From assembly GCF_029227855.1 (NCBI RefSeq), contig NZ_CP074356.1: a DNA stretch of 64,000 nucleotides, one strand, 5' to 3'. This document shows, piece after piece, positions 58,201 through 64,000 of the stretch. Origin of the DNA: Escherichia coli (GTDB lineage Bacteria > Pseudomonadota > Gammaproteobacteria > Enterobacterales > Enterobacteriaceae). The position numbers are program-made. Each line of letters begins with the position of its first letter. Within the stretch, counting starts at the first letter, position 1.

Positions 58201-61200
58201 ACGGCGGGCGAATCTTTCCAGTAAAAAACAGGTTGCTCGGTCCCGGCGACGATCTCCCCTTTCGCTTCCGGTATCTTAAAGCCTGAATAGTTGATTCCCC
58301 AGGTTGCCAGCGGCCAGCCGTAGTTTTTGCCTTTTTGCGGGATATTAATTTCATCGCCACCGCGCGGGCCATGTTCATTCAGCCATAGTGCATTACTCCA
58401 CGGATTCATCGCCATTCCTTGCGGATTACGAATGCCATAAGACCAGATCTCGGCGCGCGCACCGGATTCCTTTATAAAAGGATTATCATCCGGGATTTCG
58501 CCCTGGTCGGTCAGACGCACCAGTTTGCCCTGTAATTTATTCAGATCCTGCGCCGTCGGGCGCTGATTGTTTTCGCCCAGAGCAATAAAAAGATAACCTT
58601 TACCGTCGAATACCAGCCGCCCGCCAAAATGGTTGCCGGTAGACAGTTTTGGCATCTGGCGAAAGACGGTGCGGAAGTCGGTCACCTTTGAGAGATCATC
58701 ACTTAAGCGGCCATAACCCACAGCAGTTCCGGCTTTGCCATCATCGCCAACTTCGGAATAACTTAACCAGATGCGGCGAGACTGAGCAAAATCAGGCGCT
58801 AAAACCACATCCAGCAGGCCACCCTGCCCGTGCGCCCAAACTTCCGGCACTCCGGAAAGCGGCGCAGATAATCCTTTTCCTGCTTGCCAGTGACGCAACT
58901 CGCCGCCGCGCAGAGTGATTAACATACCGTGATTGTCGGGTAAAAAGGCCAGCGCCCAGGGATGGTCGAGTTTGTCCTGCAGTACTTCGACATTTACCGT
59001 TGCAGGAGCCGCCCAGAGAGCGGAAGAAAGACAAATAAGGGGCACAAGGAAAAAGGATTGTCGATGCATAACGCCTCCGGATTGACTCTGGCTTAAAGCG
59101 TAGTCAGTGGAGGAGATAACAAATTCATTTTTACAAAAACTTAAACATGAAGGGGGAGACGCTTTCTCCCCCTTAGTTTTCAGGCCTTCTCAAGCATGGC
59201 GTGCTTCTGCAGGCTCTGGATACTCAGCGTTAAGCTCATCAGACAATTTTCAAGCTTATCGGCGTTGACGGTAATAACAGTCGGGCAATCATGGTGCCCA
59301 CTCATCAAACATATTGCGGCTGTCGCTAATGCTTCTTCAGCATGATGAAGAGCACTCCACTCTTCCTGATCCAGATGAAGATTCAACCGCAGCGATTTAT
59401 CGTGCAGTTCGCGATTCAGTTTAAAAAAGTTATCTCGTAGATGATTGCTTTCGCTGACGGACATGTATCCTTTTGCCTTCCTCAGTTGCACGTATGCGGC
59501 GAGGTCAACGCGTGCGTCGATCAACCGGTTCAGCAGATCGATTCGCTGTCTGTCAACGAACATACTTCGATCCTCCTCTTTCCAGCCTTATTGCAATTAA
59601 ATAGTATGGCTATTTTTTGAGCAAAATGCTGTCCAGGATCAATTCTTCACGCCGAATTAACAAAATTTACATTTCCTTCGCCTCCGCCAGCGAATGAGAT
59701 TGCGATACAAATTTTATCCAGAACTCTGTAGAATCCCTGCCCTGACCTTTCCTGTAACTGAATATTTTTTAAGCTATGAGCAAAGTAACTCCCCAGCCGA
59801 AAATCGGCTTTGTTTCCCTTGGCTGTCCGAAAAACCTTGTCGATTCAGAGCGTATTCTCACCGAACTACGCACTGAAGGTTATGACGTGGTACCGAGCTA
59901 TGACGATGCGGACATGGTGATCGTCAACACCTGCGGCTTTATTGACAGCGCGGTACAAGAATCACTGGAAGCCATTGGTGAAGCGTTGAATGAAAACGGC
60001 AAGGTAATTGTGACCGGTTGTCTGGGGGCAAAAGAAGATCAGATCCGCGAAGTCCACCCGAAAGTGCTGGAAATCACCGGGCCTCATAGCTATGAGCAGG
60101 TTCTGGAGCACGTTCATCACTACGTGCCAAAACCGAAACATAACCCATTCCTGAGCCTGGTGCCAGAACAAGGCGTGAAACTGACGCCGCGTCATTATGC
60201 CTATCTGAAAATTTCTGAAGGCTGTAATCACCGCTGCACCTTCTGCATTATTCCGTCTATGCGCGGCGACCTGGTGAGCCGTCCGATTGGCGAAGTGTTA
60301 AGTGAAGCGAAACGTCTGGTAGATGCGGGCGTTAAAGAGATTCTGGTGATCTCGCAGGATACTTCCGCCTATGGCGTCGATGTTAAACATCGTACTGGCT
60401 TCCACAACGGCGAGCCGGTAAAAACCAGCATGGTCAGCCTGTGCGAACAGTTATCGAAACTGGGGATCTGGACGCGTCTGCACTATGTTTATCCTTATCC
60501 GCATGTGGACGACGTCATCCCACTGATGGCAGAAGGCAAAATCCTGCCCTATCTGGACATTCCGTTGCAGCACGCCAGCCCGCGCATTCTCAAACTGATG
60601 AAGCGTCCGGGTTCTGTAGATCGCCAACTCGCGCGCATCAAACAGTGGCGCGAAATCTGCCCGGAACTGACCCTACGCTCAACCTTTATTGTCGGCTTCC
60701 CTGGCGAGACGGAAGAAGATTTCCAGATGCTACTCGACTTCCTGATAGAAGCGCGTCTGGATCGCGTTGGCTGCTTTAAATACAGCCCGGTTGAAGGTGC
60801 AGACGCCAATGCCCTGCATGACCAGGTTCCGGAAGAAGTGAAAGAAGAACGCTGGAACCGTTTCATGCAGTTGCAGCAGCAGATTTCCGCCGAGCGCCTG
60901 CAAGAGAAAGTGGGCCGTGAAATTCTGGTGATTATCGACGAAGTGGACGAAGAAGGTGCGATTGGTCGCAGCATGGCAGATGCACCGGAAATCGACGGCG
61001 CGGTTTATCTCAATGGTGAAACCAACGTTAAGCCGGGTGATATCCTGCGTGTGAAAGTCGAGCACGCCGATGAGTACGATTTGTGGGGTAGCCGGGTTTA
61101 ATTAATCTTAAGGCAGATCTAACAAGGATATTGTTCTTCGATCTGCCTCTGCTACCCTTCCCGATGTCCTACCCTTACGCACAAAATCCCCTGACGCATA

Positions 61201-64000
61201 AATCGAGAAAAATGAATCGTACTCGAGGCAACTCTCACTTTTTCACACCAAATTAAAGTTTTGATCGCAATTACTTGAAATAAGCGTAATGGTTACTATA
61301 GTAAACATTACCACAAGGATGGATGTATGGGTGTGTATAAGGCAAGACGATTCAGCCAAAGCACGAAAAAACTTGGTATTCACGATAAAGTTCTCATGGC
61401 TGCCGCTGAAGAAGTGATGCAGGGCATATGGGAGGCTGATTTAGGTAGCGGTGTCATCAAAAAACGTTTACCCCTCCAACAAGGAAAGAGTGGTGGAGCC
61501 AGAACAATTATCTTTTTTAAATCAGCAAATCATGTGTTTTTTTATGATGGTTGGTCCAAGAGTGGTCTAAGCAGTAAAGGAACCAAAGAAATCGAAGATG
61601 ATGAACTGGCGGCCTACAAAAAAATGGCAAATGCATTTCTGGCCTTTAGCAATAAGCAAATAGAGGATTTGATCGAAACTGGCTTTTTGATTGAGGTGAA
61701 AAATGAGCGATAAATTACAAATGATGCTGGAAGATGCAAAGGAACTGAATGCACTGGGCCTGATGTCTGATAGTGAAGTTGATGCCATTGCCGTCATGGT
61801 CAAAGCTCGTGAAGTCAGCGCCCGTATAGCCAAAGTCAAATCAATGACGGGTGAAGAGATCAAAGCCATCCGCACCCGATACGGCATGTCACAATCCGTG
61901 CTGGCACATACAATGGGAATGTCAAAAGAAAGTGTCTCGAAATGGGAACGTAATGAAATAAAACCGAGCGGCCCGGCATTACGTATTTTGAATACATTGG
62001 CAATAAAAGGGCCGGAAGTTTTTGCAAAGTAAAATGTTTGCAAATGATTTACCACATTCATTAGTACCCCTTGATTAAGGGGTACTAACACTATTCTAAT
62101 TCTACTGCCAGCTAATCTGCGCCCTGCCGTTTTTCTTACTCTTATACAGTCGCTCATCCGCCAGCATTTTCAAGCGTTCAACGGTAGTACATTCATTTGA
62201 ATGCGCTACACCGATACTGGTGCTTAAATTAATGCTTCCCACCTGGAAATGAACAATTTCTTTTAGAATCGATAGCAACTCTTCCAGCGTTCCACCCGTA
62301 TAAATCACCGCAAATTCGTCACCGCCGAAGCGGTAGACTTTACCTTTATCTACGGGGATCTGTGATTTAAGGATTTTCACCACTTTCATCAACACTTCAT
62401 CGCCCAGCAAATGACCGAAGGTGTCGTTGATGTTTTTGAATTTATCGACGTCAAACAGGCACAAATAACCGCCTTTTTCCGGCAGCGCTTTTAAATCTTC
62501 GTCAAAGGATTTTCTGCCCATTGCTTTGGTCAGGTCATCCAGGAACGCCGAGTTATACAGACTGTAGAGTTTTTTGACATCGGCAGCCGAAAAGAAAAGC
62601 CCGCCATCCAGTACGCGTTCAAAATGGTTATTAATGATGGCTTCTTTCTCCACAATACCACGATTAATCACTCTGCGTACCAGATAGAGGCAACTGACAC
62701 CCGATATCACTGCCACCAATGCGGCAAAGAAAATAATCAATGTACAGACCCGCAAATAAACATCTTTTTTATACGCAAATACGTACAATCCGGTCGGCAA
62801 ATAGGCGAAGTGCTCCATCGCTTCCGAAACGGTGAAGATGGCGTTTTTAGCATTAAATTCATCACCGGTCACCGGTTTACCGTTCTTAAACAGAGAGAAC
62901 ATCAGGTTCTCGCTATCCATCGCCAGCGATTTTGACAGTAAAGAAAAACGCTCCAGACCAAGCAAAAATATCAGACTGCGATTGTGAGTTACCGGATAGA
63001 GGTAATAGACGAAGGTTTTACCGTCAAAAGAGATAAACCCTGTATTTTTGACATGTCGATACTTCACAATCTGCATAATATCTGCACAATAATTTTTCTC
63101 AAACTCCTTTACCTGAATACATTCGTCACTGGAAATCAGGTAAGGACCGACATCGTACAAATAAGAGGGTGAAACCGAGTCGGCGTAAGCTGTGCGCAAA
63201 CCAACCAACAGCTGTTCCTCCGTGGGGTTTAGCGTGTTGATGAGATCAATTGCCACGCTACGCCGATATTCAGCAATATTTGCCACCGCAAAAGCAGTAT
63301 CAATAACGGACTGTTTCAGGCCATACACCCGTTCCTTTACCATTTGAGTGTAGATCCCGCAGGCAACTGCTGAAATCATGATAAAAATCAGCAGACTGAC
63401 TGTAAGTACGAACTTATTGATTCTGGACATACGTAAACTACTCTTTTACTAATTTTCCACTTTTATCCCAGGCGGAGAACGGCATGGGTTTCTGGTACAG
63501 ATACCCCTGAGCCTGAACACATCCTAATTTGATTAATTCGCGCGCAACGTCTTCGCTCTCTACGCCTTCCGCAATCACCGGGATCCGGTTATAGCGTGCC
63601 AGATCGAAAATAATGCGCACAATTTTTCCCGCAGTACCGAAAATATCGCCGGTAAATTGTGAGTCCACTTTTATGCTATCTGGATTAATTTCATAAAAAC
63701 GTTTCAGGTTTGACAAACCGGTGCCAAAGTCATCAATCGATATCCGTACCCCTTGTTTACGCAGTTGTTCAATATTGAGATAGAAATGTTCATTAATTCG
63801 CTCGATCACGGTTTCAGTGATCTCAACACAAAGGCTGTTCGCCTTCAGGCCATTTTCTTTCATGATGGTAGTAAAACGCTCATGAAAGTGTGGTTCGTTT
63901 AACTGCCAGGGCGAAACATTAATATGCAGTAAGAAATCATCCTTCAGCGATGCACGCTGACTAAAATGTCTGAATTCACCCATTGCCGTTTTAATAATCT

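Follow-up and report, generated by a model that had tools for sequence, protein, structure and literature searches.

The family, mechanism and architecture of type II toxin-antitoxin modules of the HigB-2/HigA-2 kind have been established in Vibrio and Coxiella. We looked here at a gene pair of Escherichia coli that resembles them and that lies between the genes rimO and dgcI, in a 64,000-nucleotide stretch of contig NZ_CP074356.1 (assembly GCF_029227855.1) referred to below as the window. In V. cholerae, HigB-2 (VcHigB2) cleaves mRNA in a ribosome-dependent manner and arrests growth when expressed, and alanine substitution of its residues R51, R64, Y82, and K84 cuts the activity 170- to 3000-fold (PMC5416850). 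Its partner HigA-2 (VcHigA2) binds an inverted repeat, TGTACGC-N5-GCGTACA, that begins past the -35 box and spans the -10 box, and reads the bases through R68, E71, N72, and R77 (PMC11006873). In Coxiella burnetii, the plasmid QpH1 carries ToxP/AntitoxP (CBUA0028/CBUA0027): ToxP is toxic, halting growth and inhibiting translation; AntitoxP counteracts this in the cell and binds both ToxP and the promoter; and the K79E mutation makes ToxP non-toxic (PMC10098735). A survey assigned HigB-2 to the family PF06296, in which the gene order is toxin then antitoxin, and the HigB toxins of Rts1 and of K-12 to PF05015 and PF09907 (PMC11980606). The E. coli pair itself is uncharacterised but already machine-annotated, its toxin bearing the RefSeq label 'type II toxin-antitoxin system RelE/ParE family toxin' (WP_000539521.1); a literature search found no paper on this pair or on its locus in the library that it covered.

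We found that the locus is very probably an intact chromosomal type II toxin-antitoxin operon of the HigB-2/HigA-2 kind, with a PF06296 toxin gene first and a gene for an antitoxin with an Xre-type helix-turn-helix (HTH) domain second. Its elements are the following:

61102-62101: rimO-dgcI spacer, 1000 bp
61275-61302, plus strand: predicted sigma-70-type promoter of the operon, with the -35 box TTGAAA (61275-61280), a 16-nt spacer and the -10 box TATAGT (61297-61302), matching 10 of 12 consensus positions
61286-61311, no strand assigned: candidate operator palindrome of 26 bp, GTAATGGTTAC-TATA-GTAAACATTAC, covering the promoter spacer and the -10 box
61315-61319, plus strand: toxin Shine-Dalgarno sequence AAGGA, read from the sequence, 7 nt 5' of the ATG
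61327-61713, plus strand: toxin gene, 128 aa, PF06296, HigB-2 family within the RelE/ParE superfamily
61693-61698, plus strand: antitoxin Shine-Dalgarno sequence GAGGTG, read from the sequence, inside the 3' end of the toxin gene
61703-62032, plus strand: antitoxin gene, 109 aa, with a helical N-terminal region (residues 1-46) and an Xre-type HTH domain (about residues 48-100)

Two open reading frames (ORFs) with homologues are present in the spacer, both on the plus strand with ATG starts, and they overlap by 11 nt (61703-61713). A sequence-only reading of the window had described this toxin-first pair and its overlap in the same spacer, and all of it was found at the positions given there. 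The same reading had called the products a RelE/HigB-2-like toxin and an Xre-HTH antitoxin and had proposed a search with hidden Markov models as a check; this search placed the first in the PF06296 toxin family and the second in HTH_3.

PF06296 (Pfam name 'RelE') covers the toxin from end to end (E = 7.9e-33, 113.7 bits, residues 1-124 on model positions 1-120 of 120) and is its sole significant Pfam family. V. cholerae HigB-2, whose reference sequence was checked against PDB 5ja9_C and found identical over 110 residues, also falls in PF06296 (E = 3.3e-8, 34.2 bits, model positions 8-96). VcHigB2 is the shorter of the two, with 110 aa, while the E. coli toxin has the longer form typical of PF06296. 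A single-sequence phmmer search of the toxin against the PDB gave no match. When an alignment of 29 toxin homologues (A1) was used as the search profile, only HigB-2 chains were matched in the PDB (E = 3e-4), and hhalign aligned the toxin with HigB-2 at a probability of 87.8%. An AlphaFold2 (AF2) model of the toxin was obtained with a pLDDT of 84.7 and a pTM of 0.81. In a Foldseek search of the PDB with this model, the six best matches were HigB2 structures (top 8a0x and 5ja8) with a probability of 1.00, TM-scores of 0.47-0.61 and about 15% identity, followed by YafQ, RelE, HigB1, and ParE. HigB-2 is thus the best solved relative of the toxin by profile and by fold, and the toxin is predicted to adopt a RelE-type (BECR) fold, with N-terminal helices on an antiparallel sheet. 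Past the last core strand, the model has two helices and a short strand, whereas VcHigB2 has one helix, so that the E. coli protein would carry an extra C-terminal helix and strand.

The four residues that matter for VcHigB2 activity have counterparts in the E. coli toxin. Both the profile search and hhalign aligned R51, R64, Y82, and K84 of VcHigB2 with R47, R59, W76, and K78. Across the 29 homologues of A1, R47, R59, and K78 are invariant and W76 is nearly so (at least 90%). VcHigB2 and the E. coli toxin therefore share the catalytic Arg/Arg/Lys and an aromatic residue at the fourth position (PMC5416850), and R47, R59, W76, and K78 are putative catalytic residues. In addition, K79 of ToxP, the residue changed in its non-toxic mutant, aligns with K78.

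The second protein matches Pfam HTH_3 over residues 53-94 (E = 3.4e-9). With an alignment of 19 antitoxins from related loci (A2) as the profile, the best PDB match was V. cholerae HigA-2 (E = 3.4e-13), ahead of the P22 C2 repressor. Like VcHigA2, the E. coli protein would have a neutralising region at its N-terminus followed by a C-terminal Xre HTH. Its N-terminal region of about 46 residues carries a pattern conserved in A2, LE-A--L---G, and residues 1-46 are presumed to be the toxin-neutralising part; judged from its family, the C-terminal HTH is the DNA-binding and dimerisation domain. In an AF2 model of toxin, linker and antitoxin fused in one chain, the antitoxin N-terminus formed two helices with a pLDDT of 80-95; this model came without contacts or predicted aligned error (PAE). 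The antitoxin Shine-Dalgarno sequence GAGGTG is stronger than the AAGGA of the toxin, and its position within the toxin gene, together with the 11-nt overlap, is consistent with translational coupling. In PADLOC, the antitoxin matched generic HTH regulator models only, HTH_VI, RmrA, and capH among them.

Relatives of the pair were collected by scanning genome_contigs, one genome per species, which gave 65 confirmed loci (L010-L074), and six Kluyvera loci (L004-L009) were added. An antitoxin homologue lies directly 3' of the toxin gene in 61 of the 65 and in all six from Kluyvera. Identity to the E. coli proteins is 68-73% for the toxin and 73-74% for the antitoxin in Kluyvera georgiana and K. 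sichuanensis, and 74% and 78%, respectively, in Enterobacteriaceae bacterium UBA5654. DNA similarity to the Kluyvera and UBA5654 loci starts at 61271-61276, at the -35 box, and ends at the antitoxin stop codon. These limits indicate that the conserved unit consists of the promoter, the operator and the two genes; about 165 nt upstream and about 65 nt downstream of it are E. coli-specific. Between the window and O157:H7 Sakai, the two ORFs show 9 nucleotide differences and a single amino-acid change (T86S, in the toxin). This synonymous bias and the conservation of the pair across genera mark both ORFs, at the level of sequence, as real genes.

Upstream of the toxin gene, TTGAAA-16-TATAGT is the sole strong plus-strand promoter match in the leader. 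The palindrome at 61286-61311, GTAATGGTTACTA/TAGTAAACATTAC, has 13-nt arms that are complementary at 12 of 13 positions with no spacer. It can be read as two GTA-N5-TAC dyads with TATA between them, and this central TATA starts the -10 hexamer. Only two palindromes of such quality were found in the 64-kb window (at 61286 and 62062), and when the 225-nt upstream region was shuffled 20000 times, such a palindrome arose in 6 cases. The upstream DNA of related loci, otherwise unalignable, nevertheless carries GTA-N5-TAC-TATA-GTA-N5-TAC, and the TTG-N-TATA(G/A)T arrangement recurs there as well. We scanned 63 species-representative loci (542 kb) for the operator motif, allowing at most 2 mismatches in its 16 fixed positions. 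The motif was found in 36 of them, from Enterobacterales to Legionellales, nearly always 40-51 nt 5' of the toxin start, and only 2 sites were detected elsewhere in the 542 kb. The 64-kb window has a single site, that in the promoter of the cassette. Such conservation is good comparative evidence for a functional operator, to which the antitoxin would bind; the near-perfect palindrome had been proposed as suited to autoregulation from the window alone, and its position over the -10 box and its recurrence across bacterial orders agree with this.

Taken as a mechanism, these elements suggest that the single sigma-70 promoter would transcribe both genes. The toxin would act, by homology, as a RelE-fold ribosome-dependent mRNA endonuclease that cuts mRNA in the ribosomal A site via R47, R59, W76, and K78, and this cutting would stop translation. 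Translation of the antitoxin would rely on its own Shine-Dalgarno sequence, located within the toxin gene, and would run across the 11-nt overlap. It would neutralise the toxin through its helical N-terminal region of about 45 residues, and it would be the labile partner of the two. Finally, the antitoxin, as one or two dimers, would bind the palindrome over the -10 box through the C-terminal HTH and repress the operon. As for its role, the most economical reading is that of a self-maintaining addiction module, long resident and repeatedly lost.

The E. coli pair differs from its described relatives in several ways. The V. cholerae pair, which supplies the best solved relatives of both the toxin and the antitoxin (VCA0468/VCA0469; PDB 5JA8, 5JAA, 8A0X), likewise has a PF06296 toxin encoded first and an operator that is an inverted repeat over the -10 box (PMC11006873). 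However, the V. cholerae pair is located in the superintegron, whereas the E. coli pair is at a core chromosomal locus. The operator sequences are also different, GTA-N5-TAC-TATA-GTA-N5-TAC in E. coli against TGTACGC-N5-GCGTACA in V. cholerae, and so are the antitoxin base contacts: the residues that correspond to R68, E71, N72, and R77 of VcHigA2 are E76, S79, K80, and E85, in keeping with the different operator. The closest experimentally tested relative found is ToxP/AntitoxP, with a toxin 36% identical over 125 aa and an antitoxin 33% identical. It shares the gene order and the gene overlap with the E. coli pair, but it is encoded on a plasmid, whose maintenance it serves, the GTA-N5-TAC dyads are missing from its promoter region, and the N-terminus of AntitoxP is longer and lysine-rich.

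Other systems share parts of this organisation. The HigB-HigA pairs of Rts1/Proteus vulgaris and of K-12 (ygjN-ygjM) also have a toxin-first order, a RelE-superfamily fold and an HTH antitoxin, whereas the antitoxin architecture and the neutralisation mode of PvHigBA are different (PMC5416850). Membership of the E. coli pair in the Rts1-type HigBA group was considered and rejected, PF05015 and PF09907 being absent from the Pfam matches of the toxin even at E <= 10. E. coli MqsR/MqsA has the toxin first too, and the antitoxin HTH weakly matches the C-terminal domain of MqsA. Membership in MqsRA was likewise rejected: the TIGR03830 match reached 47.1 bits, below the cut-off of 61.8, and covered the HTH only, and the toxin had no MqsR match. 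Moreover, the antitoxin has no cysteine and therefore cannot carry the zinc-binding CxxC N-terminal domain of MqsA.

Some observations weigh against assigning the pair to the HigB-2/HigA-2 kind as an active module. Identity to VcHigB2 is about 15% with a TM-score of about 0.5-0.6, the sequence alignment is confined to the core (residues 41-86), and Tyr82 of VcHigB2 is replaced by Trp. The NCBIfam and PADLOC libraries contain no model that matches the toxin, and a PHROGs search gave one weak family of unknown function only. The fused AF2 model lacks an interface read-out and shows two N-terminal helices, not the helix-plus-strand of VcHigA2. With other base-contacting residues and another operator, the DNA-binding details of VcHigA2 cannot be transferred to the E. 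coli antitoxin. The catalytic core is deleted in some E. coli lineages, as described below, which implies that the toxin is dispensable. Lastly, it is by homology that the pair is credited with toxicity, RNA cleavage, neutralisation and DNA binding.

If this assignment is correct, the pair adds a well-defined and probably active HigB2/HigA2-type module to the type II repertoire of E. coli, one that K-12 does not have and that about one fifth of complete genomes do. With its fixed locus, the cassette can serve as a clean presence/absence marker. Its 26-bp operator, of a subfamily type conserved across bacterial orders, would be useful for the study of DNA recognition by Xre-type antitoxins, and natural alleles with a disarmed toxin would be useful for the study of module decay. 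The cross-order operator, the syntenic persistence across genera and the disarmed-toxin allele are mildly interesting additions; the finding as a whole opens no new question.

We then considered the distribution of the cassette. In K-12 MG1655, the rimO-dgcI spacer is 46 bp long and holds one hairpin. The window and K-12 alleles share sequence until 5 nt beyond the stop codon of rimO and again from that of dgcI onwards; neither allele holds a remnant of the other, and each has its own unique DNA. Among 5426 complete E. coli genomes, the full cassette (at least 80% coverage at an identity of at least 95%) is present in 1128 (21%), the K-12-type junction in 4286, and a partial cassette in 10 more. 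The rimO-dgcI locus is essentially biallelic in E. coli. Every full E. coli copy is chromosomal and located there. Carriers include O157:H7 strains (Sakai, ECs_5400/ECs_5399, and others), O55:H7, and HS; strain 042, which we take to be the source of accession CBG33750.1 in the protein cluster, appears to be a carrier too. The cassette is absent from K-12 and CFT073. The sequence-only reading had taken the pair as probably accessory relative to K-12, which agrees with these counts.

In Kluyvera and UBA5654, the orthologous pair occupies the same bssR/rimO-to-gsiD neighbourhood. In Kluyvera, it is preceded by bssR (or a PTS operon) and followed by gsiD-gsiC-gsiB-gsiA, and some genomes have no rimO within 4-5 kb. 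In UBA5654, yliI, bssR, and rimO are followed by one extra ORF, the pair, and gsiD. Neither dgcI nor pdeI was found within 4-5 kb of the pair in Kluyvera or UBA5654. The flanking orthologues in these genomes are 47-96% identical to those of the window. The module is, on this comparison, at least as likely to be an old occupant of the rimO-gsi interval, lost by most E. coli lineages, as to be an insertion. More distant relatives of the pair sit in unrelated contexts and on plasmids. In the plasmid collection PLSDB, 209 records contain the wider toxin family, among them those of Piscirickettsia, Sinorhizobium, Coxiella, Moellerella, and Providencia; identity stays under 60% in all but three E. 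coli records.

Decayed forms of the cassette were also detected. The E. coli toxin allele P0013 (104 aa) lacks 72 nt between two KSG motifs, an in-frame deletion that removes 24 aa (residues 57-80), R59, W76, and K78 among them, and its antitoxin is intact:

L080 2501-2815 and L081 2501-2815: deleted-core toxin allele, at the same rimO-dgcI locus; the deletion corresponds to about 61495-61566 of the window

The collection index lists this allele in 41 blocks, and its toxin appears to have been disarmed naturally. Degraded copies of the cassette are present in rare genomes. One of them, in E. coli BS-01 (NZ_CP172816.1; L076 2494-3166), is 47% covered at 92.6% identity; the ends of its toxin ORF are altered, with a low-complexity tail, no antitoxin is annotated, and the adjoining pdeI is interrupted by a stop codon. 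Either true decay or an assembly error could account for this copy. Several clusters of 'truncated toxins' were set aside as frameshift artefacts from error-rich assemblies in which every gene is fragmented.

The cassette is bordered by two convergent genes and by a hairpin at each edge:

59776-61101, plus strand: rimO, left neighbour, ending at 61101
61111-61148, plus strand: hairpin just 3' of the rimO stop codon (inverted repeat I1); RNA fold -16.2 kcal/mol, z = -3.9, no U-tract
62061-62088, no strand assigned: hairpin with a perfect 12-bp stem (inverted repeat I3, 100% complementary), between the antitoxin and dgcI stop codons
62102-63430, minus strand: dgcI, right neighbour, convergent with rimO, stop-codon end at 62102

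The left hairpin stands at the left edge of the allele-specific DNA and is likely the transcript-end stem-loop of rimO, insulating the cassette. The right one, at the other edge, folds on both strands (plus, -17.7 kcal/mol, z = -3.5; minus, -23.0 kcal/mol, z = -4.9; no U-tract) and is likely a two-way transcript-end structure. A terminator scan found no plus-strand intrinsic terminator, neither flanking hairpin having a U-tract. In K-12, the 46-bp spacer (L001 7665-7710) is almost wholly one hairpin with a 13-bp stem (-23.1 kcal/mol, z = -5.1). One hairpin in K-12 against one at each cassette edge means that a stem-loop follows each gene in both alleles. An Rfam scan of 60900-62300 (E <= 1), which spans the whole cassette with its 225-nt leader, gave no match and thus no known RNA element.

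Four other explanations of the locus were weighed, and none of them is favoured. That the cassette is a recently inserted mobile element is unlikely. Its absence from K-12 and CFT073, the frequency of the wider family on plasmids and a GC content below that of rimO would fit an insertion, which the wording of the sequence-only reading had implied. That reading had also called the segment AT-richer; this holds only against rimO (GC 0.413 for the spacer, 0.526 for rimO), dgcI (0.438) and pdeI (0.430) being almost as AT-rich. No integrase, transposase or other recombinase gene is present in the cassette, neither of the two ORFs encoding one according to Pfam, and comparison with the K-12 junction revealed neither direct repeats nor a target-site duplication. 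By these features, the cassette does not qualify as a mobile genetic element, whether an insertion sequence or an integrative element. All full-length E. coli copies are chromosomal and at one locus, the cassette diverges from that of Sakai by 0.9-1.5% and the flanking rimO and dgcI by 1.1-2.1%, and orthologues 68-78% identical occur in the same Kluyvera/UBA5654 neighbourhood, within the range of the flanking orthologues. The core-like divergence and the nearly all synonymous changes argue for long residence under purifying selection and not for a recent arrival, and the claim of an insertion was not upheld. It is very unlikely that the pair is a decaying or domesticated remnant, with a non-toxic toxin kept as a passenger ORF beside an HTH regulator. 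The 79% of genomes that do without the cassette, with no obvious consequence, are in line with this, as are the deleted-core allele with its intact antitoxin on many contigs and the rare degraded copies. In contrast, the ORFs of the window are full length with intact catalytic residues, the 1128 carrier genomes keep at least 80% of the cassette at an identity of at least 95%, substitutions are nearly all synonymous, and the promoter, the operator and both Shine-Dalgarno sequences are intact.

The two remaining explanations concern what the module does for the cell. As an anti-phage abortive-infection module, it would shut down translation when a phage disturbs the antitoxin, instead of ensuring its own selfish maintenance. 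RelE/ParE-superfamily modules have been discussed as defence toxins (PMC11980606), the cassette is polymorphic for presence across E. coli as many defence genes are, and the antitoxin HTH resembles regulators in PADLOC models (HTH_VI, RmrA, capH). However, no PADLOC-DB 2.0 model matches the toxin, the neighbours (rimO, dgcI, bssR, and the gsi operon) do not form a defence island, and there is one weak phage homologue only. Unlike fast-turnover defence cargo, the cassette also keeps one fixed site, core-like divergence and synteny with Kluyvera. We consider a defence role quite unlikely. The other explanation is a coupling to the neighbours, in which dgcI, pdeI or bssR would be under the control of the antitoxin or of the complex, or the A-site action of the toxin would be tied to RimO. 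What speaks for it is position: the cassette lies between rimO and dgcI, near bssR, and adjoins rimO in UBA5654. RimO methylthiolates ribosomal protein S12, and a tie between this and the toxin is speculation. The operator motif, whose one site in the window is that of the cassette promoter, the hairpins that part the cassette from both neighbours, the Kluyvera pair that adjoins gsiD with no dgcI or pdeI, and sometimes no rimO, within 4-5 kb, and the distant relatives in unrelated contexts and on plasmids all make such coupling extremely unlikely. The link to c-di-GMP turnover and biofilm put forward from the window alone was one of adjacency, and these comparisons gave it no support. A wider variant, in which the pair is an anciently resident partner of the neighbourhood with a host-level role, either phage defence or, more speculatively, an A-site action tuned by RimO-dependent S12 modification, is a long shot; the idea of tuning by RimO comes from the fact that rimO adjoins the pair in E. 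coli and UBA5654. If such a host-level role were true, cross-talk between homologous modules could arise through the operator, which is unusually well conserved from Enterobacterales to Legionellales. An addiction module of the HigB-2/HigA-2 kind, resident for a long time at this locus, is the reading that we consider the most economical.

Several minor observations were made along with these analyses. The 100%-identical E. coli records of PLSDB are NZ_CP134663.1 (4.90 Mb), NZ_CP141089.1 (4.94 Mb), and CP088669.1 (0.73 Mb). A plasmid-borne E. coli cassette was considered from them and rejected, the two largest being chromosome-sized records filed as plasmids. Two Proteus mirabilis records of the same collection (NZ_OL790811.1 and NZ_OL790812.1, about 4.08 Mb) are chromosome-sized as well. 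A 1198-bp contig from a metagenome-assembled genome labelled Collinsella sp. (JAIJJM010000872.1; L010) carries a pair 100% identical to the E. coli proteins, with 99.5% identity in DNA, and includes the end of dgcI; it is almost certainly E. coli contamination of the bin. The single phage match of the toxin (37% identity over 86% of its length) is at 4340-4657 of PV340552.1, Escherichia phage PhiR12_3 (host ECOR13), where it is annotated as a hypothetical protein. Further cases of toxin loss with the antitoxin kept were seen at L071 5001-5712, on plasmid p1 of Pseudomonas sp. T1-3-2, and at L068: the toxins are truncated to 42 aa and 98 aa, the antitoxins are full-length, and that of L071 is 60% identical to the E. 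coli antitoxin. In UBA5654, the extra ORF between rimO and the pair (L011 3738-4688) encodes 316 aa of unknown function and has no E. coli counterpart. Finally, dgcI and pdeI (62102-63983), with a low GC content of 0.43-0.44 against 0.503 for the window, are missing between the toxin-antitoxin pair and gsiD in Kluyvera and UBA5654 (window compared with L004, L007, L011, and L012); of the two gene pairs, it may be the c-di-GMP genes that reached this interval later.

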